Numbered from the stretch's first letter, positions 6,253 through 20,381 are shown. The stretch: 32,000 nucleotides of DNA from Candidatus Syntropharchaeum caldarium (GCA_001766815.1 LYOS01000007.1:1-32000); one strand, 5' to 3'. Notes: generated by a model not told the origin, from the letters alone. Numbers and translations are program-made.

Positions 6253-7155
6253 ATGTATGAGAGTTTCATCTTTGAGGGTGGATCTTATCGACACCGTGAG
6301 CTTGTTGAGCTGATCGAGGATCTTGGTGGATATATCATAACCAGGCGGATCTTTGCTCAGGAAGCGCATATCACATTCACAGCCCCCTCTGAAGATTACG
6401 GGATGATAGAAGAGGTTGCATCAAATCTCAATGGACAGATCAGGGAGGCGCCGCTTCTTGGGACTGAGATAGCGGTTGTAACGCCAACCATCACACGCCA
6501 CCACCTGCCACATTCGGTCTGTGATGTGGCAGAGATGCTGCGTCGCAGGGGTGCACAGACAAACGTTATAGGGCTTGCAAGGGGGGTTGGCAGGCGGACC
6601 GCACAGTTAACATCGAGGGAACGGCAGATCATTGAGGAACACGATCTCTGTCTGATCGGGCTCGGAAATTTCAAAAAATGCATCGAGGAGAAGCTTGAGG
6701 TATTCAGGAGTTTAAAAGTTCCAGTTGTTGCACATGGTCTTCCCGAGTTAGAGGTGGAGGGTATAAGGTACGTAGCATCGCTGGGAAGGCTTCCGTACAC
6801 CTTCAAGCGATTGAATGAGATCGACATCCTTAAAAAAATCTCAGATGAGGTTGCAAAGGCAATCAAAGAACTGAAAGAGGAAATTGCAATCGACCCGCCA
6901 TTTGTTCCGCCATGGGTTGTCACAGATGAACTGCTCCATCAGGTCGAGGACATCAGGTACTCACTCGCACCTGCACCGATTGTACAGCGAATAAACGGAG
7001 TCAGGATCAAGCTTCCCTATGATGATTATCATCGGGCAGTTGAAAATGTGGTGATAAGTGATCGAAAGCTCTCTGAGATAGCCAGGATCAAAAGATCGGT
7101 CAATCGCAGTAGAATACTTGTGGAGCTTATCCCGATGTCACTTTTAAATACTTGA
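6253..7155 (+). CDS. Conserved hypothetical protein, possibly methanogenesis marker protein 7 (Mmp7)-like
   Basis: 300-aa ORF starting 6 nt after leuS, with GGAGTGATC upstream. The N-terminus (MYESFIFEGGSYRHRELVELIEDLGGYI) and the TRHHLPHSVCD block match my recollection of the methanogen-restricted marker-7 family. The family call is from memory only. The CDS call itself is solid. Confidence 0.55.
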   Translation: MYESFIFEGGSYRHRELVELIEDLGGYIITRRIFAQEAHITFTAPSEDYGMIEEVASNLNGQIREAPLLGTEIAVVTPTITRHHLPHSVCDVAEMLRRRGAQTNVIGLARGVGRRTAQLTSRERQIIEEHDLCLIGLGNFKKCIEEKLEVFRSLKVPVVAHGLPELEVEGIRYVASLGRLPYTFKRLNEIDILKKISDEVAKAIKELKEEIAIDPPFVPPWVVTDELLHQVEDIRYSLAPAPIVQRINGVRIKLPYDDYHRAVENVVISDRKLSEIARIKRSVNRSRILVELIPMSLLNT

Positions 7156-7165
7156 AGATCGATGT

Positions 7166-7741
7166 ATGAACATGTTGAGTGAAGAAGAGGGCAAAGAAGC
7201 ACTCAGACTTGCAAGAGATGCAATCGAGGCGTACATAAGGGATGGTAAACGTATAAACCCCGATGAGTACAAACTGTCACCGGTCTTTGATGAGAAACGT
7301 GGTGTATTTGTCACGATAAACAAGCAGGGAGCTTTGAGGGGGTGCATTGGATTCCCATATCCCGTGATGCAACTCAAAAATGCGATTGTGGAGGCGGCAA
7401 TAAGTGCAGCATCAAGTGACCCGCGTTTTCCCTCGCTATCACCCGACGAGCTTGAAAAGATTGAACTTGAGGTTACAGTTCTTACAGAGCCCATAAAACT
7501 TGATGTGAAGCCAAAGGATCGGGCAAATGCGATTATTATAGGTAAACATGGTCTGATCGTTCGAAACGGTCCATACCAGGGGCTTCTCCTTCCACAGGTT
7601 GCACTCGAATGGGGATGGGATGCAGTAACATTTCTGGAGCAGACCTGTCTAAAAGCAGGGTTAACCCCTGATATGTGGCTCGATGAGAAGACTGATGTCA
7701 GCATCTTTGAAGGACAGATCTTCCGTGAAGAACGCCACTGA
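7166..7741 (+). CDS. AMMECR1-domain protein
   Basis: 191 aa. Contains GVFVTINKQGALRGCIGFPYP (the RGCIG signature), DPRFP and GLLLPQV blocks typical of AMMECR1. Confidence 0.9.
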   Translation: MNMLSEEEGKEALRLARDAIEAYIRDGKRINPDEYKLSPVFDEKRGVFVTINKQGALRGCIGFPYPVMQLKNAIVEAAISAASSDPRFPSLSPDELEKIELEVTVLTEPIKLDVKPKDRANAIIIGKHGLIVRNGPYQGLLLPQVALEWGWDAVTFLEQTCLKAGLTPDMWLDEKTDVSIFEGQIFREERH

Positions 7742-7751
7742 ACAGGCCGAG

Positions 7752-8276
7752 ATGGTTAAACGGCTATTTCTGCAGGATAAGCCAGCCGAGATTCTCCTCA
7801 CGATATCGGAGATGAAACACCCCTACACATCAAAGGTGATCAAACAGGTGGATACAACCTTTGCACATGCTTTAAAAATCCTGTCGGCGATGGAAGAGCT
7901 TGGCATTCTCAAATCTGAAAAGACAGGACGGATCCGGATGCTGAAACTCACACCTTACGGCGAAAAGCTTGCAAAATCCATGAACGCACTCCTTATGGCC
8001 TGCAGTCAGGACCTCGATGTGAGGACTGAAAAAAAGATGGATGCTGGAGATCAACTCTGTTTTAAGCTCGATCAGATATACGCCGAGGAGATCGAGGGAA
8101 GAAAGCGTTTACGCCATAAGGATCGTGTTAGAATCTCAAGAAGGCTTGCACCTTATGAGCGCGAACTCAAAAAGCTTGAAAAGATCTCCAAAAACGAAGA
8201 CGATCCTGTAATTACTAAAATAAGAGAAAAAATAAGGGAAATAAAAATAGAAAAGGAAAGACTCACGCATCCTTGA
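7752..8276 (+). CDS. Winged-helix DNA-binding protein with Lys/Glu-rich coiled-coil tail
   Basis: Probable start is ATG 7752 (MVKRLF...); the track ORF from 7683 overlaps AMMECR1. An HTH-like segment is YTSKVIKQVDTTFAHALKILSAMEELGILKSEKTGRIRMLKLT. The C-terminus is a charged helix (KKLEKISK...IREIKIEKERL). Confidence 0.6.
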   Translation: MVKRLFLQDKPAEILLTISEMKHPYTSKVIKQVDTTFAHALKILSAMEELGILKSEKTGRIRMLKLTPYGEKLAKSMNALLMACSQDLDVRTEKKMDAGDQLCFKLDQIYAEEIEGRKRLRHKDRVRISRRLAPYERELKKLEKISKNEDDPVITKIREKIREIKIEKERLTHP

Positions 8277-9871: not shown

Positions 9872-10567
9872 CTAAAACAACTCCGCACTCGAATGAACAA
9901 CGATCCCCTCGTTTGTGATCGAGTATGGCCTTATCTTTCTTGAATGAGCACTTCGGCGCATCTTGACGATCTCAAGTGCGAGTGAGACCTCCCTCAATTC
10001 ACACTGGCGAATGTACCTCAATGAGATGACGCCATCTGAGACGTACTCAATAAAGCCGTATTTCGAGTGGAGTGAGTCGTCGGTAGCACTCTCTGAGGTT
10101 AGAATCGTTGTAATTCCACTCTGTTTAAATAGGTTTGCGAGAAAAAAGATATGCTCTCTTCTTTCAGCCTCACTTGCAAAGAGTATCTCGAGCAGTGTTA
10201 TAGAATCGAATACAAGCCGCTTTGTCCCGAAGTTCTTAATTATCTCAGGAAGCTCTGAGGCGATCCGCTCGATCGAGACCTTTATATCGGCTGGATTAAA
10301 CCTCACCACAAGCAGCTTACCCTCTCTGATGTACCTCTCAAGATCCCATCCATAATCCGCTGCGGTATCGACGATCTCCTTCTCGCTCTGGTCGAGTGTG
10401 ATGTAGATCGCTGAATCTCCCTGCAGAAGTCCGTGGTATGTATACTGGAGCGAGAACGTCGTCTTCCCTGTTCCATATCCACCAACGAGAAGGACTGTGT
10501 GCCCCCTGGGAAATCCTCCTCCAAGCATCTCATCAATTCCCTCGATCCCAACGCTCAATCGTTCCAT
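9872..10567 (-). CDS. KaiC/RecA-superfamily ATPase (single-domain KaiC-like), canonical P-loop
   Basis: 231 aa. Contains GIEGIDEMLGGGFPRGHTVLLVGGYGTGKTTF (KaiC-type N-terminus plus Walker A) and Walker B KRLVFDSIT. Last gene of a three-gene minus-strand operon. Confidence 0.85.
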   Translation of the reverse strand: MERLSVGIEGIDEMLGGGFPRGHTVLLVGGYGTGKTTFSLQYTYHGLLQGDSAIYITLDQSEKEIVDTAADYGWDLERYIREGKLLVVRFNPADIKVSIERIASELPEIIKNFGTKRLVFDSITLLEILFASEAERREHIFFLANLFKQSGITTILTSESATDDSLHSKYGFIEYVSDGVISLRYIRQCELREVSLALEIVKMRRSAHSRKIRPYSITNEGIVVHSSAELF

Positions 10568-10569
10568 TT

Positions 10570-11355
10570 TTACCCCTTCCCTAAAATCTGTCGGATCGGA
10601 ATGAGGCTCAACCCGTCATACGGCGATATATTCACCTCAAAGTTTACGATATCCTCTTCATCAAGCCTTGATAGCTCTCCACGAAACTTATTTATGGACA
10701 TCAGGCGAGTTCTCGCACCAGATCTCGTATCGCTCCATCTGAATGAGAGAACGCCGTCCACAACATCTGCAACCTCCTCCTCAAGTGCCTTCTCAAAGAT
10801 ATTTGAGGTCAGCATCAGGTACACCAGCCCACCCCACCGCTTCGATACCCGCTGCAGTCCCTGCAGGAATTTTATAAACTCTCCCCAATCGGACGCATCT
10901 GAGTATGCTCTGAGCAGGCTTGTGAGCGAGTCGATGATGACAAGACGCTCACTGACATTCTTCTCATCAAGACACTCCACAATCTCTTTTAGAAGCTCAC
11001 GATCCCGACCTGCATCTTTGAGCAGATTCAGTGTATGATCATTATTATCCGTAATCCATGAGAGTGGGATCTGTGAACGCCTGAAATACGACTCCGAAAT
11101 GTCTCTGATCTCAATATCACCGGGTTCAAGGTTTGCAAAGGATGTGCGCACCTCATCGAGTATATCATCCCGAGATCTCGTCATTGAGATATAGCAGACA
11201 TTCTTCTTTTGATTTGAGAGCGCAATCATCGAGGTATATGCAAACTCATAGTGTCCGCTTCCAACCTCTCCAAGAAGAAGAATGAGCGAACCTTTTCTCA
11301 CCCCGCCATTGAAGATCATATCAAGGGATGGTATCCCGCATGCAACTTTATTCAT
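10570..11355 (-). CDS. KaiC-like paralog with degenerate P-loop
   Basis: 261 aa with the same architecture (GIPSLDMIFNGGVRKGSLILLLGEVGSGHYEF), but Walker A reads GEVGSGHY instead of GxxGxGKT. Walker-B-like LVIIDSLTSLL is retained. It lies 2 nt from the downstream gene and overlaps the upstream gene by 8 nt. Confidence 0.75.
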   Translation of the reverse strand: MNKVACGIPSLDMIFNGGVRKGSLILLLGEVGSGHYEFAYTSMIALSNQKKNVCYISMTRSRDDILDEVRTSFANLEPGDIEIRDISESYFRRSQIPLSWITDNNDHTLNLLKDAGRDRELLKEIVECLDEKNVSERLVIIDSLTSLLRAYSDASDWGEFIKFLQGLQRVSKRWGGLVYLMLTSNIFEKALEEEVADVVDGVLSFRWSDTRSGARTRLMSINKFRGELSRLDEEDIVNFEVNISPYDGLSLIPIRQILGKG

Positions 11356-12916
11356 CCTCTATCCTCTTTTCCACCTCAATCTCCTCCATCTCTCGTTTTA
11401 TGAGATGAAACTCCTGAGTTGTTAGCGTGGCACCATCGAGCGTTACAAGCGCAGATGAATTCGATGGCATCACACAGTCATTCACAAGCTGGAAGAACTT
11501 GTGGATCGAGACGAAGCTGTTCTGTGTCATCAGATACTCAACACCCTCGATCAGGATCAATCCTTTCTCAGCCTGCTTCACGAAATTGTCGATCATCTCA
11601 AAACATAGTGAGAGTTCGTTCGGAGAGAGACAGGTCTCGGGTGGGATCTTATTCTTCACAAGCCAGATGATGGGGGTGTTCTCAAGCCCATACTTCGCTC
11701 TTATCTTTTTAGGGTTCATCCTCGTGATGCACAGCCCTTCCATACCGTGCTTTACACCATCTGCAAATACTTCAAGCGCCAGCGAAGGTTTTTCTTCATC
11801 GAAGATGTAGATTGTGCCTGCATCAATCCTGTATCTCGACTCTCCAAGCTCGGTAACCTCTTTTGATGGCAGAACGATGATGCCCTCAAGATCGGTTATA
11901 TCTGTTAATGTTATCACAACCCCTGTAAGCTCATTCTCACTCTCGAATGTTGAGACCGATGCCATGATCGGGATTGTTACACCACCCCCTCTTGTAAGAT
12001 TTATCCGCTGATACTTTCCGTCTTTTACTTCGATCGGTGTCTTGAAGATGCCTGACAATGTAAGCTCAGATTCGCTCTGTTCCTCAATCTCAAGAAGCTC
12101 TCTTGCTGCAGGATTTATCATCTTCACTCTGCCATCACTATCTGCTGTTATCGTTGCAATCGGCGTTCGGTCAAGAACCATTGATAGATACTCGTTCTCC
12201 ACCCTGATTTTTTCCTCAAGTCGTTTCTTCTCGGTGATATCGATGAAACTCACGACTGTTCCTGCATCTATCTCGTTATCCTCCTCCAGTCTACTTTGAT
12301 TGAGAAGAATTACAGCTTTTTCGCGATTTTTCGGCTCTATCGTGCATTCCCCTTCCATCCCTATCTCATTGAATGGGATCAGATCCTCCAGAGCCTTTCC
12401 AAGTACCTCAGCCTGTGTGTATCCTGTTATCTCCTCTGCTTTCCTGTTCCAGGTCTTGATTTTTCCATTAGAATCTGTCACAGCCACGCCAGATGGCACG
12501 GTTGCAAGCACAGCTTCGAGGTGATTGTTGAGATTTTCAATCTGGTTTGATACGACGAGAAGATCCTCGCGCTGGAGATAGTACTCAAGTGTCATCTCCT
12601 CAAGGGCCTTCTTGCTCGCTGCAAGTTCGTCCTCCATTGCCTTTATTTGATTGAGATCAAATCCATGTAAGAGGAAGAGACGTCTGTCATTCGCACCATC
12701 ATCGAGTTTCAGGGGTGTAAGCGAGATATGATACGCTACCTCTCCTTTTTCAGGATCGTTGACGCTTATATCAAAGCACTCCTGCTTATCAAACCCATCA
12801 GAAAGATTTTTTAAATCATCAATGAATTTGTCGGTTAGGAGTGCCTCAAAGGTGCTGTTCGACATTATTTTCTCCCATCTCTCATCAAATAAAGCCATCA
12901 GATCCATTTTCGACAC
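11348..12916 (-). CDS. Cytoplasmic sensor: PAS domains plus C-terminal DUF835
   Basis: 522 aa with no TM segments. There are two clear PAS modules (LEAVLATVPSGVAVTDSNGKIKTWNRKAEEITGY... and LSMVLDRTPIATITADSDGRVKMINPAAREL...), preceded by a coiled coil. The C-terminal block GLCITRMNPKKIRAKYGLENTPIIWL...LILIEGVEYLM...LVTLDGATLTTQEFHLIKREM matches DUF835. There is no kinase or HTH output domain. Confidence 0.8.
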   Translation of the reverse strand: MSKMDLMALFDERWEKIMSNSTFEALLTDKFIDDLKNLSDGFDKQECFDISVNDPEKGEVAYHISLTPLKLDDGANDRRLFLLHGFDLNQIKAMEDELAASKKALEEMTLEYYLQREDLLVVSNQIENLNNHLEAVLATVPSGVAVTDSNGKIKTWNRKAEEITGYTQAEVLGKALEDLIPFNEIGMEGECTIEPKNREKAVILLNQSRLEEDNEIDAGTVVSFIDITEKKRLEEKIRVENEYLSMVLDRTPIATITADSDGRVKMINPAARELLEIEEQSESELTLSGIFKTPIEVKDGKYQRINLTRGGGVTIPIMASVSTFESENELTGVVITLTDITDLEGIIVLPSKEVTELGESRYRIDAGTIYIFDEEKPSLALEVFADGVKHGMEGLCITRMNPKKIRAKYGLENTPIIWLVKNKIPPETCLSPNELSLCFEMIDNFVKQAEKGLILIEGVEYLMTQNSFVSIHKFFQLVNDCVMPSNSSALVTLDGATLTTQEFHLIKREMEEIEVEKRIEDE

Positions 12917-13018
12917 CCTTTTTTATATCATACTCTATTATGTGTTTCATTCTTTAAATATATTTTTTTATCTTTAAAGATACTTTTTTATATCTTGATA
13001 TTATAAATTATTCATAAG
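12917..13018. promoter_or_regulatory. 102-bp AT-rich divergent promoter region between the sensor/KaiC operon and the pilus operon
   Basis: TATA-like TTTTTATAT (12986-12994) lies about 27 nt before ATG 13019, implying a leaderless or near-leaderless mRNA. On the minus strand, AAATATATTTAAAG (about 12954-12967) is followed by GGGTG 7 nt before ATG 12916. There is a perfect 12-bp palindrome ATCTTTAAAGAT at 12970-12981. TCTTTAAA recurs at 12951-12958 and 12971-12978. Confidence 0.4.
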
Positions 13019-14623
13019 ATGCTAAAAATCTTTAGCAGAAATCGACAAAAAGATGCACAGGTCAAAGAGGACGAAGACCCCTCCGAGCTCGTATCGTTCA
13101 TCGTACCACCTGATAATATCGAGCTTGAGCGTTACGTCCTGAATGATGGAAGAGCGATCGCAGTAATCATCGAGGATGGGGCAACAAAGATTAAAAGATA
13201 CCATCTCATAGAACCAATCCTGACTCAGGAGGAAAAGTTTCTGCTCGAAGAGCTCTATGATAACCTTCAGGATGTTCTGACACTTGAGGATCTGGAAACG
13301 GGTGAAGAAGCGGGTACCCAGCATCGAAGAGAGGTACTTCAGCGAAACATTGCTCGACTCCTGAAGAACTATGGAATTACCTTGAGCCCTGCTGCATCTG
13401 GCAGGATCTCTTATTATCTTGAGCGAAACTTCCTTGGATATGAGCGGATCGATGGGTTGATGGATGATCCATGGATCGAAGATATATCCTGTGATGGTGT
13501 GGGTCTGCCAATATATCTATACCACAGGAAGTACCAGAATCTACCAACAAATATCTCATTTCAGGATGAGGAGACGCTCAATTCGTTCATCATTCGACTC
13601 GCACAGAAAGGCGGAAAACATATCTCAATCGGTGAACCGCTCGTGGATGCAACACTTCCCGATGGTTCAAGACTCCAGATAACGTACGGGCGTGAGGTCA
13701 CATCACACGGCTCAACGTTCACGATAAGAAAGTTCAGAGAAGATCCGTTCACCCCGCCCGAACTTATCAAAAATAACACCTTCTCGGTTGGGATGCTTGC
13801 ATACCTCTGGCTCTGCATCGAGAACAGCAAGAGTCTGATCTTTGCTGGAGGAACTGCTTCTGGCAAGACTTCATCACTAAATGCGGTCTCGTTCTTTATC
13901 CCACCGATGGCGAAGATCGTATCAATTGAGGATACACGGGAGATCACGCTCTACCATGAGAACTGGATCCCTGCTGTTACGAGAAACCCTGTGACAAAAG
14001 GTGGTGAGGGCGAGGTTACGATGTTTGATCTCCTGAAGGCAGCGTTGAGGCAACGACCTGAGTATATACTACTGGGAGAGGTGAGAGGTGCAGAGGCTTT
14101 AACGCTCTTTCAGGCGATGAATACAGGGCACACAACCTACTCAACGATCCATGCAGAGGACCCTCAGAGTGTTGTGAGCAGGCTTGAGAATGAGCCGATC
14201 AACGTCCCGCCTGTGATGCTCCAGGCACTTGATATCATCGTGGTTCAGATCCAGACACGTCTTGGTGGGAAACGGGTGAGGCGTGCAAATACACTTGTTG
14301 AGATCATCGGAATCGATCCGCAGACAAAGAATCTGAGGATAAATGAGCTCTTCAGATGGGATCCTGCAACAGACGACTTCACGCAGCTTGGCGACTCGCA
14401 TAAGTTGCGGGAGATCATGAAAGAGCGGGCATGGACAAGGGATGAACTTATGGATGAACTTCATCGAAGGGAAAAAGTGCTTGAATGGATGGTCTGTGAG
14501 GATACTATGGACTACAGGAAGGTTGCAGAAGTTCTCCAGGCATACAATCTTGATCCTGAGCGTAGTGTGTCTGAAATCAAGGATGGGTGCGAATATGCAG
14601 AACTCGACCTCCAGATTGTTTAG
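13019..14623 (+). CDS. Type IV pilus/archaellum-family secretion ATPase (ArlI/PilB/VirB11-like)
   Basis: 534 aa. Walker A is GGTASGKTSSLNA, Walker B/Asp box is PEYILLGEVRGAEA, and the His box is TGHTTYSTIHA. The N-terminal domain resembles ArlI-type ATPases. Confidence 0.9.
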   Translation: MLKIFSRNRQKDAQVKEDEDPSELVSFIVPPDNIELERYVLNDGRAIAVIIEDGATKIKRYHLIEPILTQEEKFLLEELYDNLQDVLTLEDLETGEEAGTQHRREVLQRNIARLLKNYGITLSPAASGRISYYLERNFLGYERIDGLMDDPWIEDISCDGVGLPIYLYHRKYQNLPTNISFQDEETLNSFIIRLAQKGGKHISIGEPLVDATLPDGSRLQITYGREVTSHGSTFTIRKFREDPFTPPELIKNNTFSVGMLAYLWLCIENSKSLIFAGGTASGKTSSLNAVSFFIPPMAKIVSIEDTREITLYHENWIPAVTRNPVTKGGEGEVTMFDLLKAALRQRPEYILLGEVRGAEALTLFQAMNTGHTTYSTIHAEDPQSVVSRLENEPINVPPVMLQALDIIVVQIQTRLGGKRVRRANTLVEIIGIDPQTKNLRINELFRWDPATDDFTQLGDSHKLREIMKERAWTRDELMDELHRREKVLEWMVCEDTMDYRKVAEVLQAYNLDPERSVSEIKDGCEYAELDLQIV

Positions 14624-16463
14624 CATCGCTTACAGGATCTTTGGGGGAAGTGTGCAGAAAAAGGATCTTTCTGCGCTTTCGCTGGATCTGAGGCGAGCCA
14701 GGATCCCAATTCCAGCGGCAATCTACCTCTCAACCTCGAGACTCATCGCATCTTTCCTTGCAATCTTTGGGGGTTTCATCGGGGTTCTTGCAGGATATGC
14801 AATCGTTCCTTATCCTGATCTTGCAGGTTTCATTCTGATCCTATCTGCTGGATCACTCGGTGCGATTCTCTTCTATCTGCTCACGATGCGAACATGCCTT
14901 GTGTACCCCACCTTCAGGATGAATACGAGGAAGATGAAGATAGAGAGAGGTCTGCTTCATGGGATAAACTACCTCTATGCGATGGCAAAAGGCGGAATGG
15001 GAATGATCGATGCTTTTCGATCTCTACATAGGCATGAGGAGGTATATGGCGAGTGTGCAGTAGAGGCAGGTTATATCGTAAGGGATGTTGAGTACTTCGG
15101 GCTTGACCTTAAAACCGCTCTTATGCGAGCATCGAAGAACACACCGTCCGAGAAGTTCAGGGATTTCATTGAGGGTTTGATCTCGGTGATGAATACAGGT
15201 GGCTCGATCGAGAACTATCTTGCAACCAGGTCAGAGCAGTATCAGGAACTTGCAGAGGAGGATAATAATTTCTTTCTTGATACGCTTGGTATGCTCGCAG
15301 AATGTTATGTTACGGTATTTGTTGCAGCACCATTATTTCTCATCACGATCGTCCTTGTTCTGGGGATGCTGAAATCAGGAACACTTCTGATACTCGCTAT
15401 CATCGTGTATGTCCTTATCCCAATCGGGACTTCACTCTTTATCATTCTGCTTGATGCAATCACAACCAGGACAGATGAAGAGGCACCATCCTTTATCAGG
15501 TTGAAAAAACTCAATGTATTTGATGACGTACACACCATCGAGGGAGATGGGGAAAGTATCGTTGATGCGTTGAAGTGGTATGCGAAGGTCGAGCGTATCA
15601 GGTTCTTCCTGCGCTCTCCATTCCGCTTCTTTATCGAGAAACCATACAGGAGTTTCTATATCTCACTCCCACTAACTCTCATCTATCTCCTCGAACTCCT
15701 GCACCCTTCATGGCAAATCCCAACAGACTTTGACCGCTCGATCTTCTATGCCACCATTCTCTTACTTCTTCCATACTCGCTATTCTTTGAGATTAGAGCA
15801 AAGCGGATAAGGGATATTGAGAGGATGGTACCTGAGTTCTTGAGACGGCTTAAGAGCATAAATGAGACCGGGCTACATCTTGTCGATTCTATACGGGTTA
15901 TGATCAGATCGAACATGGGGGTTTTAACAAGCGAGATAGTAAGGGTTGCAAGCTCGATTGAGTGGGGAAATACCGTTGGGGAAGCATTACGCAAGCTTGA
16001 GGTCAGGGTAAAGACAGGTGCATTATCAAGAGCGATCACGCTGCTTGTCGATGCAGATCGTGCAACAGGAAACCTGAGGGATATACTCTCTATTGCAGCA
16101 TTGAATGCTGAGATCATGCAGCGACTCAGGGAGCGGCGAAGTGCTGCGATGTCGATCTACCTTATAATCGTGTACATTACCTTTGCGGTATTCTTATTTA
16201 CGATATACATAATAACGACGAAGTTTCTTGGTGGAATGCCCAAAATTCCGATTGAAGGTGCCGAAGAGTTCCTCTCAGTTGACTACGATCTCTCCCTCTA
16301 TGAAAAGGTGCTCTTTCATGGATCACTCCTCCAGGGTTTCTTCTCAGGGATCGTTGGTGGACAGATGAGCTCAGGGAATCCATACAGTGGGATCAAGCAT
16401 GCAATTGTGATGATGATCGCAGCATATCTTGTCTTTGTGTTTCTGATATGGGGTGAAGGATGA
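14595..16463 (+). CDS. Polytopic membrane platform protein (ArlJ/FlaJ/PilC/TadC-like, two T2SS-F-like halves)
   Basis: Multiple TM helices are separated by two cytoplasmic helical domains (e.g. TALMRASKNTPSEKFRDFIEGLISVMNTGGSIENYL and EALRKLEVRVKTGALSRAITLLVDADRATGNLRDIL). The probable start is ATG 14595 (or 14583), overlapping the ATPase stop. The track start at 14442 is an in-frame extension through the ATPase gene. Confidence 0.8.
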   Translation: MQNSTSRLFSIAYRIFGGSVQKKDLSALSLDLRRARIPIPAAIYLSTSRLIASFLAIFGGFIGVLAGYAIVPYPDLAGFILILSAGSLGAILFYLLTMRTCLVYPTFRMNTRKMKIERGLLHGINYLYAMAKGGMGMIDAFRSLHRHEEVYGECAVEAGYIVRDVEYFGLDLKTALMRASKNTPSEKFRDFIEGLISVMNTGGSIENYLATRSEQYQELAEEDNNFFLDTLGMLAECYVTVFVAAPLFLITIVLVLGMLKSGTLLILAIIVYVLIPIGTSLFIILLDAITTRTDEEAPSFIRLKKLNVFDDVHTIEGDGESIVDALKWYAKVERIRFFLRSPFRFFIEKPYRSFYISLPLTLIYLLELLHPSWQIPTDFDRSIFYATILLLLPYSLFFEIRAKRIRDIERMVPEFLRRLKSINETGLHLVDSIRVMIRSNMGVLTSEIVRVASSIEWGNTVGEALRKLEVRVKTGALSRAITLLVDADRATGNLRDILSIAALNAEIMQRLRERRSAAMSIYLIIVYITFAVFLFTIYIITTKFLGGMPKIPIEGAEEFLSVDYDLSLYEKVLFHGSLLQGFFSGIVGGQMSSGNPYSGIKHAIVMMIAAYLVFVFLIWGEG

Positions 16464-18058
16464 GGTTTATTCGGGATGAAAACGCGGTATCCGAGATCGT
16501 TGGTGAGATTCTGATGATAGGGGTTGTGGTAATCTCCTTCGGTCTCGTAACAACCTTTGTCTATACGTACCTGTCAGGACCTGATATTTCGCCAGGGATA
16601 GACGTAACGGGAATAGCAGATGATACGCTTGATATGATATATCTCAAGCACAGCGGTGGGGAGTGGGTTGGTGAGAACGAACTCAAGGTTATCCTGCGGA
16701 TAAACGATACAACCTACCAGTATAACTGCACGGATGAGTTCAGGCTCGGGGATGTGATCGAGATCAATACTTCAAGTGAGTATGGTCTTGATCTCAGGCG
16801 GGGCGAAGAGGTAACGATCCTGCTTATTCATGTACCAACGGGACAGATCATATCCTCAGGCGAACTCGGATACAGGGCAGCAGACTGCTCTGAAGATTCA
16901 ACACCCCCGTCATCGGTTACAAACCTCAGGAATACAACCTTTGAACCCTCATACATCATCTGGGCATGGGATAACCCGGCAGACGAGGATTACTCACATG
17001 CAGAGGTCTACATCGATGGCATCTATCAGGGCACAACCTCTGCAAGCTGGTACAATGCAACAGGGTTTGATTCAGGGACGAGCCACACAATATCACTCAG
17101 AACGGTCGATACCTGCGGGAATGTTGATGCAACATGGGTGAATGGTAGCGCGAGAACCTTCAGGCCCTGGTGGGATGCGGGATGGGGATACAGAAGACCA
17201 GTAAACATTACATCCTCTGATGCGCTCTCAGACCACCAGATCAGGTTTTATATTCCCTATGATAGCGATATGCAATCAGACTTTGATGATCTGCGGTTTA
17301 CAACCCAGGATGATTCTCCGATACTCCACTGGCTTGAGCTTAAAAGTAATAGTAACTGGGCAAGTGTGTGGGTCAAGGTTCCGACAATCGCGGATGGAAA
17401 CACCACGATATACATGTACTACGGGAATGCAAGCGCTGGGAACGCATCAAACACCGCGACGTTCGAGTTTTTTGATGACTTTGATGCCTGGAGTGGGTGG
17501 AGCGACTACGGGTCTGGGACGGTTGAATGGACGTCTTATGGCTCTGAGTACGTGCTTAAGAAGAACGGAAGCTGTGATCCAAGTGGAGGATGGAAGAGTC
17601 TCGGGATACAGGTTACAGACTATCGTCTGGTGACAAGAGAGCGAAGGGATGTTGAGGGGTCTGATTGTGGTATGGATCGTTATGGGATCGAAGATTCAAG
17701 CTACAACGGCTATAACATCTACAGGACTGCTTACACATCTGGATCCGGGAGCTTTGGGTTTGAGCGAAGAACAGGAGGGTCTTCCACGGGCAGATGGTAC
17801 ACAAGTCTCAGTCAGCCCTATAACAACTGGTACATCACAGAATTAAAACGAGATGGGTCAAATTTCAATGCATCGTTGTTTGATGGGGATGACAGAGGTT
17901 ATATCGGCTCGCAAACAGGGAGTGATTCAGTCCACTCAGGTCCATTTGACAGGGTTGTGATAAGGGGCGGGAGACCTTATTATGTTGACTGGATTGCGCT
18001 TTGTAAGTACAGCATGCCTGAACCCACTTACGCGATAGGAGATGAGGAGGAATATTAG
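16460..18058 (+). CDS. Large pilin-like protein: archaeal pilin N-terminus, FN3-like domain, DUF2341, ConA-like C-terminal domain
   Basis: The N-terminus MRFIRDENAVSEIVGEILMIGVVVISFGLV resembles the archaeal class III signal and hydrophobic helix (compare DDRAVSPVIGVILMV). It is followed by the beta domain of the Pilin_N/DUF1628 type (YLKHSGGEWV...GDVIEI...VTILLIHVPTGQIISS). Next come an FN3-like segment (PPSSVTNLRNTT...WDNPADEDYSHAEVYIDG) and DUF2341 (WGYRRPVNITSS...FDDLRFT...WVKVPTI..NTTIYMYYGN). The C-terminus begins FEFFDDFDAWSGW (jelly-roll type). An ATGA overlap couples it to the platform gene. Confidence 0.75.
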   Translation: MRFIRDENAVSEIVGEILMIGVVVISFGLVTTFVYTYLSGPDISPGIDVTGIADDTLDMIYLKHSGGEWVGENELKVILRINDTTYQYNCTDEFRLGDVIEINTSSEYGLDLRRGEEVTILLIHVPTGQIISSGELGYRAADCSEDSTPPSSVTNLRNTTFEPSYIIWAWDNPADEDYSHAEVYIDGIYQGTTSASWYNATGFDSGTSHTISLRTVDTCGNVDATWVNGSARTFRPWWDAGWGYRRPVNITSSDALSDHQIRFYIPYDSDMQSDFDDLRFTTQDDSPILHWLELKSNSNWASVWVKVPTIADGNTTIYMYYGNASAGNASNTATFEFFDDFDAWSGWSDYGSGTVEWTSYGSEYVLKKNGSCDPSGGWKSLGIQVTDYRLVTRERRDVEGSDCGMDRYGIEDSSYNGYNIYRTAYTSGSGSFGFERRTGGSSTGRWYTSLSQPYNNWYITELKRDGSNFNASLFDGDDRGYIGSQTGSDSVHSGPFDRVVIRGGRPYYVDWIALCKYSMPEPTYAIGDEEEY

Positions 18059-19546
18059 ATGCTAAAAGATGAGGATGCAATCTCGGTCGTTCTATCGGTC
18101 GTTCTCTTACTCGGCGTGCTTGTTACAGTTCTTGGAATTGTTCATGTTACGTATCTCCCTGAGTGGCGAAAATCTGCTGAGGCAGATCACATGGATGACA
18201 TACTTGAGGATCTTGCAGATCTCAAATCAGGTATCGACCTCGTTGCAGCGGTCTCCCCGGATACATCGTGCACGGTTTCACAGAAGATGCGACTTGGTGG
18301 CGGATCGATCCCTGTTATATCACCCCAAAAAAGTGGTGGAACACTCAGAACAGACCCATCCCTTCCAGATCTCTACATAACTGCGGATAACTATACCGTG
18401 GCTTATGCCTTCCCAGATCTTGGCTCGATCGAGCTTGAAGTGGACAACCTCTATGCTCTGGATCGCATATATGTCTATGAGGACGGGGCACTGATCCTGA
18501 AGGAGGTTAATCGTTCAATAATGGTACTCTCCCCTGGTATAACCCTGCAAAAGTTTAATAACGGAACAAAGGCGCTCACCATTCAGGTCATCAATATGAG
18601 CCTTGAGAGTGAATCTGTTGCAGGCTCAGGTATTGAGGAGGTTTATTTCACATACACCTCGTCCACAACCCATCATGCAGGTACAACCTCGAATGTGACG
18701 CTTACACTCACATCTGAGTACCTTGATGCATGGAAGGCTTTCTTCACCGATCGGGCAAAGAATGCTGGCTTTAATGCGACTGAGTTCAACGTGACCGCAT
18801 CCCAGAATGTTGAGCTTGATATCTATGGAGATGTGTTACTCAACGTGGTTGAGGTTGATGGGGATGCACGGATAAGACCTGTGATCGAGGCGATTGAGCC
18901 GACATGGACGCCTGGCGGTGGGATATCATGGGGTTGTGGAGGATGGTGGAAGCTTGATGCAGGGTCTGGCACAACAGCCACGGATAGTTCTGGAAATGAT
19001 AATCACGGCACGATACATGGTGCAACATGGTCATCTGGATACCTGCACTTTGATGGCTCAAACGACTATGTCAGTATCCCTGACAACGACTCGCTTGAAC
19101 CGCAGGATGCGATCACGCTTGCGGCATGGGTTAAATGGGAATGCGATCCATCCACAGGGCACAGTTGGGCAAATATCATCAGCAAGTACGGGGACAACCA
19201 GTATCTACTCCAGCATAACGTCAACAACCAGTACTTCGAGGTTGCTGTGCGAACAGATACAGGCAGGAGCTATACCTGGTCGAGCACAGAGCCACAGCAG
19301 GGCGTCTGGTACCATGTTACAGGGGTCTATGATAGTTCTGATGTTATAATCTATGTGAACGGGACACAGGAGAACTCAATGGGACGTACAGGAAATATCA
19401 CGACCTCGTCATCGCCTGTGAACCTTGGAAGGCGGGCATGGAGTGGAGATCGGTACTTCAATGGCGTGATTTATGATGCGAGGATATATTGCCGTGCACT
19501 CACACCTTCTGAGATACAGGCACTCGCATCCTCACCACCACCATAA
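18059..19546 (+). CDS. Pilin-like protein with C-terminal LamG (Laminin_G_3-type) lectin-fold domain
   Basis: N-terminus is MLKDEDAISVVLSVVLLLGVLVTVLGIV (short leader plus hydrophobic helix). A domain of about 265 aa is shared with the next gene. The LamG-like block follows (WWKLDAGSGTTATDSSGNDNHGTIHGATW...LHFDGSNDYVSIPD...ITLAAWVKW...FNGVIYDARIYCRALTPSEIQAL). The ATG directly abuts the stop of the previous gene. Confidence 0.75.
   Translation: MLKDEDAISVVLSVVLLLGVLVTVLGIVHVTYLPEWRKSAEADHMDDILEDLADLKSGIDLVAAVSPDTSCTVSQKMRLGGGSIPVISPQKSGGTLRTDPSLPDLYITADNYTVAYAFPDLGSIELEVDNLYALDRIYVYEDGALILKEVNRSIMVLSPGITLQKFNNGTKALTIQVINMSLESESVAGSGIEEVYFTYTSSTTHHAGTTSNVTLTLTSEYLDAWKAFFTDRAKNAGFNATEFNVTASQNVELDIYGDVLLNVVEVDGDARIRPVIEAIEPTWTPGGGISWGCGGWWKLDAGSGTTATDSSGNDNHGTIHGATWSSGYLHFDGSNDYVSIPDNDSLEPQDAITLAAWVKWECDPSTGHSWANIISKYGDNQYLLQHNVNNQYFEVAVRTDTGRSYTWSSTEPQQGVWYHVTGVYDSSDVIIYVNGTQENSMGRTGNITTSSSPVNLGRRAWSGDRYFNGVIYDARIYCRALTPSEIQALASSPPP
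18797..18906 (+). repeat. 110-nt tract, 100% identical to 20271-20380 (copy 1)
   Basis: Base-by-base comparison of gcatcccagaatgttgagc...gcgattgagccgacatg is identical in both genes. It encodes ASQNVELDIYGDVLLNVVEVDGDARIRPVIEAIEPT. Confidence 0.95.
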
Positions 19547-19550
19547 ACAG

Positions 19551-20381
19551 ATGATGAAAATGAGATATATCATGGATGATGCGGCAAACGTTATCATTGT
19601 AGCAACCGTTCTACTTCTGGGACTGCTTGTAGCTGTGACTGCGATCATTAATGCAACATACATCCCTGAATGGAAGAGCGTGGCAGAGGCAGAGCAGATG
19701 GAGGAGGTCTGTGAGGATTTTAAGGATCTTAAAATGGGGATCGATATTGTTACATCCGCATTTCCTGATCGAGTGGTTGCATCATCCCATATAATAGGGA
19801 TGGGAGGGGGTGGAACACTCAGGACAGATCCGGATCTTCCTTCGGTATATATCGCAACCGATGACTATACGCAGACGATGGCGTTTGAGCATCTTGGATC
19901 GATAAGTTTTGAGTCAGATAATCACCATGAGCTTGATCGCACGTACATCTATGAGAGCGGTGCTGTGATTGTGGAGGAGATAAACCGTTCGATGATGAGA
20001 CTCGCCCCAACAATTGATTTTACGAGATTTAACAACGGGACAAAGGCTGTAACAATGCGCATCATCAATATGAGCCTCGATGAAGAGGTGATAACAGGTG
20101 ATAAGATCGCCAATCTCGAACTCGTCCTCATCTCAGAGGATCTTGTATTCTCAGATAATGTCCTGAACATGAGCTTCACGATAACATCCAGACACTCAGA
20201 TGCATGGGAGGAGTTTCTGATAGAGCGTGCAACGTGTGCTGGTTTCAATGAGAGTGAATTTGATATAACAGCATCCCAGAATGTTGAGCTTGATATCTAT
20301 GGAGATGTGTTACTCAACGTGGTTGAGGTTGATGGGGATGCACGGATAAGACCTGTGATCGAGGCGATTGAGCCGACATGA
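19551..20381 (+). CDS. Pilin-like paralog of the 18059-19546 N-terminal module, lacking the LamG domain
   Basis: Contains ...MDDAANVIIVATVLLLGLLVAVTAIINATYIPEW. It aligns along its whole length with residues 1 to about 283 of the preceding protein, with roughly half the residues identical by eye. Candidate starts are 19551, 19554, 19560 and 19572; the track start at 19473 overlaps the previous gene. It ends at a TGA exactly where the paralog has TGG. Confidence 0.7.
   Translation: MMKMRYIMDDAANVIIVATVLLLGLLVAVTAIINATYIPEWKSVAEAEQMEEVCEDFKDLKMGIDIVTSAFPDRVVASSHIIGMGGGGTLRTDPDLPSVYIATDDYTQTMAFEHLGSISFESDNHHELDRTYIYESGAVIVEEINRSMMRLAPTIDFTRFNNGTKAVTMRIINMSLDEEVITGDKIANLELVLISEDLVFSDNVLNMSFTITSRHSDAWEEFLIERATCAGFNESEFDITASQNVELDIYGDVLLNVVEVDGDARIRPVIEAIEPT
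20271..20380 (+). repeat. 110-nt tract, 100% identical to 18797-18906 (copy 2)
   Basis: Same as copy 1. Flanking sequence is divergent on both sides: 11 mismatches in the 33 nt immediately upstream, and no similarity downstream. Confidence 0.95.

Follow-up and report, generated by a model that had tools for sequence, protein, structure and literature searches.

To our knowledge, little is known about how archaeal type IV pili (T4P) other than the archaellum are regulated, and ArlH and CirA are the only KaiC-like proteins for which experimental data are available. As reviewed, ArlH (FlaH) forms hexamers that bind ArlI with an affinity lowered by autophosphorylation, and it acts by nucleotide- and phosphorylation-dependent binding, with weak or atypical catalysis. 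Comparative genomics has placed KaiC-family genes, some of them inactivated, in or next to clade-2 T4P VirB11/TadC operons, including those of Methanomicrobia (Makarova, Koonin and Albers 2016, PMC4858521), and an entry in the supplementary table of that study lists an Archaeoglobus locus with TadC, an ATPase, a "DUF835 family" iKaiC and an inactivated RAD55. Proteins of the PAS-DUF835 and REC-DUF835 types have been catalogued by Galperin et al. (2018), including REC-PAS-PAS-DUF835 in Methanomicrobia and Thermoplasmata. Here we describe a locus in a 32,000-nucleotide stretch of the Candidatus Syntropharchaeum caldarium genome (GCA_001766815.1, LYOS01000007.1:1-32000), which we refer to at its full length as the window. 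Three minus-strand genes, encoding a PAS-DUF835 protein, a 261 amino acid (aa) protein that we name MID and a 231-aa protein that we name KAIC, lie head-to-head with an operon for a PilB3-type ATPase, a TadC platform protein and pilins. Syntrophoarchaeum is a butane-oxidizing syntroph that belongs to the Methanosarcinales in the broad sense.

An earlier reading of this DNA, made from its letters alone (the sequence-only reading), placed four open reading frames (ORFs) here: the three minus-strand genes and the ATPase gene. Their coordinates were confirmed (Table 1), as were the 8-nt overlap at 11348-11355, where the PAS-DUF835/MID junction reads ATGAATAA, and the 2-nt gap at 10568-10569, where the MID/KAIC junction reads TAA-AA-ATG. 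GAGG/GGGG Shine-Dalgarno-like motifs precede the MID and KAIC starts, and the three minus-strand genes are coupled.

Pairing of MID and KAIC with one pilus-ATPase clade

The MID-KAIC pair is conserved across species as the divergent neighbor of a pilus ATPase. One genome per species was scanned with a MID profile built from an eight-sequence alignment, which gave 80 loci, 74 of them informative in that at least 2 kb of upstream sequence was available. A T2SSE-family ATPase gene was immediately divergent from MID in 63 of the 74 informative loci, and in 65 once two Syntrophoarchaeum loci are counted in which the PAS-DUF835 gene separates MID from the ATPase gene. By taxon, the divergent ATPase was found in Methanomicrobiales (36/36), unclassified Methanosarcinales (6/6), Methanocellales (2/2) and Methanoperedens (13/15), where the two loci that lack it are L015 and L030. 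KAIC followed MID directly in 69 of 75 loci, and the two genes overlapped by 4 or 1 nt at 46 of 70 junctions and were otherwise a few nt apart.

The same association was seen from the side of the ATPase. Among 80 metagenome loci sampled with the ATPase, 61 were informative, and MID was found upstream of the ATPase in 29 of these, with KAIC present as well in all 23 that had enough room. In a neighbor-joining tree of 148 ATPases, a single 112-leaf clade contained every one of the 96 MID-linked sequences. Of 35 ATPases without the link, 27 lay outside this clade and eight inside, two of the latter being scoring artefacts or co-directional variants. ATPase paralogues encoded in the same genomes do not have the MID-KAIC pair. 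Collinearity between the window and the Syntrophoarchaeum locus L012 begins precisely at the KAIC stop codon (9874) and extends to the pilin genes, with differences beyond both ends, indicating that the pair of divergent operons behaves as a single unit. Metagenome contig L093 independently confirms the arrangement of the window. In addition, MID of the window is identical to that of a metagenome-assembled genome contig from a Candidatus Syntrophoarchaeum sp., with 97% nucleotide identity over the locus.

The sequence-only reading had proposed gene-neighborhood statistics for the PAS-DUF835 gene and the KaiC-like pair together. We found that the linkage to the ATPase is conserved for MID and KAIC and that the PAS-DUF835 gene lies outside the conserved unit. 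A hidden Markov model (HMM) of DUF835 matched in only 4 of the 160 fetched loci, which are three Syntrophoarchaeum-type loci and Methanoperedens L015. Full-length PAS-DUF835 orthologues occur only in Syntrophoarchaeum, and a relative, L009, has a shorter 409-aa version. This restricted occurrence indicates that the PAS-DUF835 gene is a lineage-specific insertion between ancestral divergent partners. In L015, a hybrid histidine kinase (HAMP-HisKA-HATPase-REC-REC), a stand-alone REC protein and a HisKA-REC-DUF835 protein (11520-15911) are convergent on MID and KAIC; the pilus ATPase is not nearby, and FtsZ and a histone deacetylase are encoded upstream. We consider L015 a second, independent recruitment of DUF835 to MID and KAIC, which argues that DUF835 communicates with this pair. 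In an exhaustive HMMER search, the DUF835 family comprised 2,451 representative clusters, and the domain was almost always C-terminal.

Motif states and folds of the three minus-strand proteins

MID and KAIC had been described in the sequence-only reading as two KaiC-like ATPases, a description that holds for their fold and fails for their chemistry. MID matches KaiC weakly (PF06745, E 4e-14) and scores 33.8 bits on TIGR03880 (KaiC_arch_3), below the cutoff of 249.45. Its AlphaFold2 (AF2) model has a pLDDT of 87.4 and a pTM of 0.86, and the best Foldseek matches of the model are SSO2452, KaiC, FlaH/ArlH (4yds, TM 0.70/0.80) and PH0284; hhalign related MID to KAIC with 97% probability. The Walker A sequence of MID reads GEVGSGHY, with neither Lys nor Thr, while a Walker-B-like LVIIDS is kept. 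In an alignment of 39 family members with 33-100% identity, the Walker A Lys was present in 0/39, its position being occupied by H, D, N, M, Q, G, E, S or Y (GE.G[AS]G[HDNMQGESY]..). E37, D142 and S143 were invariant, as were an acidic residue after the loop and the Walker-B-like hhhhDS. Because the Walker A Lys is never present and the model has the KaiC/ArlH fold, we conclude that MID is a pseudo-ATPase with a KaiC/ArlH fold throughout its family.

KAIC is a clear KaiC-family protein (E 4e-59). It scores 289.7 bits on TIGR03880, above the cutoff, with residues 7-231 covering positions 1-224 of the 224 in the profile, and it aligns over its full length with both halves of cyanobacterial-type KaiC (E 7.6e-70), closer to CI. 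On the ArlH/FlaH model NF052589 (cutoff 215), MID and KAIC score 36.7 and 51.7 bits, and the two are therefore not ArlH orthologues; on NF004723 (cutoff 194) they score 49.7 and 54.0 bits. KAIC is also below the cutoffs of the circadian models TIGR02655 and NF006799 (129.8 and 151.7 bits vs 546 and 408). It keeps both Walker A (GGYGTGKT) and the Walker B D121, and of the parts of a complete catalytic site (Walker A, Walker B Asp, Glu-Glu) it lacks the dyad only. In the 71 orthologues compared, Walker A (GxxGTGK[TS]) and the Asp of Walker B never vary, and 65 of them have the E-E dyad. A D59-Q60 dyad occurs only in three Syntrophoarchaeum sequences, those of the window, L012 and L013, which carry PAS-DUF835 as well. 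The change from E-E to D-Q coincides with the PAS-DUF835 insertion; the other variants are D-E in L016 and L050 and Q-E in L070. KAIC can probably still bind ATP. The KaiC CII phosphosites S431 and T432 align to E174-Y175 in KAIC, where the Glu is invariant across orthologues, so no autokinase cycle of the KaiC type would be expected. A circadian KaiABC system is ruled out by the single domain, the missing phosphosites and the lack of KaiA and KaiB families among the locus neighbors.

The start of the PAS-DUF835 gene was revised. At the orthologous locus L009, a stop codon comes directly after the GTG position (GTG-TAA) and the ATG that matches window position 12907 is kept, and the ortholog P0121 is 519 aa long. 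On these grounds, the gene probably starts at ATG 12907 and not at GTG 12916, which makes the spacer to the ATPase gene ~111 bp. Pfam and NCBIfam scans of the protein found no HisKA, HATPase, REC or HTH domain, in agreement with the earlier description of PAS modules with no kinase or HTH output. Across all three proteins, no two-component kinase core or REC was found at E <= 0.01, and only the PAS portions of histidine-kinase models matched. A two-component system is ruled out by the lack of HisKA/HATPase_c or REC in the three proteins, and the locus, having no two-component parts, fits the phosphorelay independence that had been proposed.

DUF835 had been noted as a domain linked to KaiC-like ATPases. 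The match to it is well above the Pfam cutoff (Table 1), and the relationship probably goes beyond linkage, since the domain itself appears to be an inactivated KaiC/ArlH-like domain. In the literature it is called iKaiC (Galperin et al. 2018; Makarova, Koonin and Albers 2016, PMC4858521). By hhalign, DUF835 resembles the MID family weakly, over the core and the Walker-B strand region (E 1.2e-4 at 54% probability; E 2.7e-3 at 11%). When the DUF835 profile was run against 177,635 PDB sequences, the sole match was FlaH/ArlH (E 0.01), at the Walker-B strand. In the AF2 model of the PAS-DUF835 protein (pLDDT 62.5; ~50-80 in the DUF835 region), the order of strands and helices in the low-confidence DUF835 part is that of residues 1-200 in the predicted model of MID; with the whole model as query, Foldseek matched only PAS proteins. 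Each of these lines is weak alone, but they agree in suggesting that DUF835 is a truncated, inactivated KaiC/ArlH-like domain. The operon would therefore encode three KaiC-superfamily modules, two of them dead and the third with a degraded catalytic pair.

Control region, pilus operon and neighboring genes

The two operons are separated by the most AT-rich DNA of the window. Positions 12917-13018 are 84.3% AT, compared with 54.5% for the window, a richness reached by only 0.06% of 102-nt windows; this control region is the sole stretch of at least 78% AT within the 32 kb. The AT-richness of the shared control region was thus as the sequence-only reading described it, although the length of 102 bp given there should probably be ~111 bp. 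Two TATA-like boxes, read from an alignment of the window, L012, L013 and L009, stand back-to-back in it and are invariant in all four, whose locus proteins are ~52-83% identical between these species. The distance of the ATPase-side box from the ATG suggests a leaderless or near-leaderless ATPase transcript. We also observed a 12-mer, GATATAAAAAAG in minus-strand reading, twice in the spacer (12918-12929 and 12983-12994), of which only the copy at 12983-12994, in the ATPase-side TATA box, is kept in L013 and L009.

Table 1. Features of the locus. Positions are those of the window; residues of the PAS-DUF835 protein are numbered on the 522-aa ORF.
Feature	Coordinates	Strand	Remarks
KAIC	9872..10567	-	231 aa; single-domain KaiC, TIGR03880 KaiC_arch_3; starts 2 nt after MID stop
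MID	10570..11355	-	261 aa; single domain, KaiC/ArlH fold, pseudo-ATPase; overlaps upstream gene by 8 nt
PAS-DUF835 sensor gene	11348..12916	-	GTG 12916 ORF of 522 aa; probable start ATG 12907, 519 aa
DUF835 (PF05763; iKaiC)	11387-11794	-	residues 375-510; 113.5 bits vs cutoff 33.1; profile 3-136 of 136
Second, weaker PAS-like module	11897-12199	-	residues ~240-340
PAS	12209-12526	-	residues ~131-236; PAS E 2.7e-16; sensory_box E 2e-22
Possible third PAS-like module (N-terminal)			residues 1-87; seen only in low-confidence model
Control region	12908..13018	.	82-84% AT; two conserved back-to-back TATA-like boxes
GGGTG Shine-Dalgarno-like motif	~12915-12919		PAS-DUF835 side
TATA-like box TTTAAATATATTTT	12953-12966	-	reads AAAATATATTTAAA; ~45 nt upstream of ATG 12907
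TATA-like box ACTTTTTTATATC	12982-12994	+	~24-37 nt upstream of ATPase ATG
PilB3-type T4P assembly ATPase	13019..14623	+	534 aa; T2SSE + PilB3_C
TadC/PilC-like membrane platform protein	14442..16463	+	T2SSF x2; real start probably ~14580-14592
Pilin_N + DUF2341	16460-18058	+	Pfam
DUF7289 + Laminin_G_3	18059-19546	+	Pfam
DUF7289	19473-20381	+	Pfam

The ATPase had been called ArlI-like. It is indeed of the paralogue class closest to ArlI, but the protein scores 400.7 bits on the FlaI model NF058587, below the cutoff of 550, and carries PilB3_C (PF23989, 35.8 bits vs a cutoff of 27). No Arl-specific families were found among the neighbors, the filament genes being of the Pilin_N, DUF2341 and DUF7289 families, and an archaellum locus is ruled out by the lack of Arl-specific genes together with the score below the FlaI cutoff. 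Homologues of the TadC-like protein align from about residue 54, and a Shine-Dalgarno-like AAGG precedes the ATG at 14580, so the overlap with the ATPase gene is probably ~32-44 nt and not the 182 nt (14442-14623) that the listed ORF gives.

Gene order in the pilin/adhesin block (16460..20381) matches that of L012 and L013. Over ~7.5 kb of the locus, the window shares 97% identity with L012. Replaced or absent in this comparison (window 17430-18018 and 18909-20199, against L012 2427-3924) are the Pilin_N-DUF2341 gene in its C-terminal part and a large share of the DUF7289/Laminin_G_3 region. The pilin of the window has 60% identity with its L012 counterpart and 81% with its counterpart in Ca. 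S. butanivorans (L013), although the latter is more distant; this looks like cassette-type replacement of the exposed pilin/adhesin parts.

On the far side of KAIC, L012 and L013 carry a second ATPase/TadC paralogue pair ~4 kb away (L012/L013 15660-19415), at ~50% identity and with no KaiC pair of its own; in the window and L093, a DnaG primase gene is found there instead. A 197-aa ORF at 7683-8276 overlaps the ends of the preceding gene and dnaG, has no Pfam match, and is basic and helix-rich, so that it looks like a small DNA-binding protein. At 6253-7155, between a leucyl-tRNA-synthetase-like gene and an AMMECR1-like ORF, there is a stand-alone McrC-like gene (MCR_C, E 9e-97), away from any mcrBGA genes in the window. 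A 789-aa protein encoded at 582-2951 has as its sole Pfam match a C-terminal PGF-CTERM motif, which is an archaeosortase sorting signal, and is probably a surface or S-layer-type protein.

Possible function of the module and comparison with known systems

As the likeliest of the readings considered, with a probability of roughly 45%, we tentatively propose that MID and KAIC constitute a cytoplasmic accessory or regulatory module of one archaeal T4P subclade, which is ArlH-like without being ArlH-orthologous and which has a PAS input in Syntrophoarchaeum. The translationally coupled MID and KAIC would assemble into a mixed KaiC-type ring, in which KAIC would provide nucleotide binding and MID would be a non-catalytic partner. 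This ring could dock on the PilB3-type ATPase or control its hexamer formation, so that pilus assembly would be gated by nucleotide state. In Syntrophoarchaeum, the PAS-PAS-DUF835 protein inserted at the head of the operon would bind or co-assemble with the ring through DUF835, and a signal sensed by PAS would then bias the ring and, through it, the pilus ATPase, with no His-Asp phosphorelay. Because the Glu-Glu pair of KAIC is Asp-Gln in the Syntrophoarchaeum lineage, the module is probably an ATP-binding or slow-hydrolysis switch and not a timer or autokinase. In a bolder form of the proposal, which we regard as unlikely, the MID/KAIC heteromer would be the ArlH equivalent of the non-rotary T4P subclade of Methanomicrobiales, Methanocellales and Methanosarcinales, a mixed pseudo-ATPase/ATP-binding ring that licenses the pilus ATPase, with DUF835 as a generic "plug" that lets any input domain (PAS here, a histidine kinase and REC in a Methanoperedens) join or poison the ring.

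If the proposal is true, a PAS-sensed cue would directly control pilus assembly without phosphotransfer in a butane-oxidizing syntroph, possibly affecting partner attachment or electron-transfer contacts. In alkane-oxidizing consortia, cell appendages have been linked to direct interspecies electron transfer and to the forming of the consortium itself, and the pili of Syntrophoarchaeum are of interest for this reason.

Several observations weigh against an accessory role at the pilus ATPase. The MID and KAIC genes are divergent from the ATPase gene, whereas ArlH is co-directional and in the same operon with ArlI, and CirA, the nearest divergent analogue with experimental data, acts on transcript levels and cell shape, with no known action on the motor. 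A pilus ATPase was found within 8-10 kb in 0/5 Thermoplasmatota and 0/1 Hadarchaeales loci, where MID is kept, usually with KAIC; the pair is therefore not obligatorily tied to pili and has an ATPase-independent function. Since MID is dead and KAIC has D-Q, little enzymatic activity may be left in the module. For the sensor arm, many DUF835 proteins have no KaiC neighbor (P0127 is an example), and the likeness of DUF835 to KaiC-like domains is weak (hhalign 11-54%), with low confidence in the DUF835 part of the model.

In a different reading, somewhat unlikely in our judgment, the trio makes no contact with the ATPase and is a CirA-like hub whose target, a transcription factor or some other protein or molecule, is modified or sequestered by it. 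The trio would in this way set expression of the pilus operon and possibly of other genes, and the divergent layout would reflect co-regulation from a shared promoter region. In Haloferax volcanii, the KaiC-like cirA gene is divergent from arlI/arlJ, its deletion raises arl transcripts and locks cells as rods, and its effects overlap the CsmR regulon. The locus described here is divergent too, with a conserved bidirectional promoter, the pair occurs without the ATPase in Thermoplasmatota, and Makarova, Galperin and Koonin (2017), according to papers that cite them, propose KaiC-like proteins as general hubs. Yet the neighborhood holds no conserved DNA-binding protein or obvious substrate, KAIC is without KaiC CII-type phosphosites, and the clade-specific pairing (96/96) and the ArlH-like fold of MID are more simply explained by physical partnership.

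Another reading is of a general KaiC-type signaling or housekeeping pair with no specific role at the pilus, whose position beside the ATPase is inherited synteny in Halobacteriota-type methanogens and alkanotrophs and whose PAS-DUF835 neighbor feeds an unrelated output. The pair is found without T4P genes in Thermoplasmatota and Hadarchaeales, Methanoperedens L015 and L030 have no ATPase, and the abundant DUF835 proteins often stand alone. Against inherited synteny, however, the linkage holds in no fewer than three orders, although protein identity is down to 33-57% and the far-side flanks vary. Moreover, synteny is interrupted precisely where the two-operon block ends on either side, and ATPase paralogues of the same genomes go without the pair. 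We consider this reading improbable. Finally, RadB/Rad55-like recombination mediators, suggested by the database names "RAD55 family ATPase" and "recombinase RecA" and by weak RadA/RadB/Rad51 matches confined to the N-terminal P-loop region, are essentially excluded, since RadA/RadB scores are far below cutoff (10-30 bits vs cutoffs above 170), KAIC passes KaiC_arch_3 and has a full-length KaiC CI/CII match, the dead P-loop of MID cannot bind ATP canonically, and no conserved repair genes lie nearby.

Compared with known systems, the proposed accessory module resembles ArlH-ArlI, where the gene of a single-domain KaiC-like protein likewise stands beside those of a TadC/ArlJ platform and a hexameric secretion ATPase of the ArlI type; the predicted fold of MID matches FlaH 4yds (TMt 0.80), and FlaH is the sole PDB match of the DUF835 profile. 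It differs in having two proteins, one of them dead, where the archaellum has one, in the divergent and not in-operon arrangement, and in the absence of ArlC/D/E/F/G and archaellin genes. The likeness to the KaiABC clock is limited to KAIC, which aligns with each of the KaiC domains over its whole length and keeps Walker A and B, whereas KAIC is single-domain, has E-Y in place of the phosphosites and D-Q in place of E-E, and is without KaiA or KaiB in its locus. As in the REC- and PAS-DUF835 proteins of Galperin et al. (2018), DUF835 is here a C-terminal output behind sensory or receiver modules. Unlike the response-regulator-like REC-DUF835 proteins, the protein of the window has no REC, so its input would be direct PAS sensing and not phosphotransfer. 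With H. volcanii CirA the locus shares a KaiC-like gene divergent from ATPase and platform genes, arlI/arlJ in that case, where genetics shows control of a T4P-related surface machine. CirA, however, is a single protein beside an archaellum and not a pilus, its Walker A matters (a G33E suppressor mutation), and no PAS-DUF835 partner has been described for it.

The class described by Makarova, Koonin and Albers (2016) embodies the same idea with the same components, differing in that DUF835 here carries a PAS input and that the genes are divergent, while the Archaeoglobus examples are co-directional. The novelty claimed for this locus in the sequence-only reading was overstated, since that study already had KaiC-family genes and a DUF835 iKaiC beside T4P ATPases and CirA has been studied experimentally. 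We conclude that the pilus-linked KaiC module is of a kind already predicted by comparative genomics, and that the value of the present analysis lies in sharpening and quantifying that prediction and not in discovery. What it adds is a clade-specific, nearly invariant divergent pairing, quantified over ~100 linked loci in three orders, a middle protein that is a pseudo-ATPase family-wide and is translationally coupled to a KaiC_arch_3 protein, a lineage-specific D-Q change and two independent DUF835 add-ons, through which the "KaiC hub" hypothesis and the proposed adaptor role of DUF835 can be put to a concrete test.

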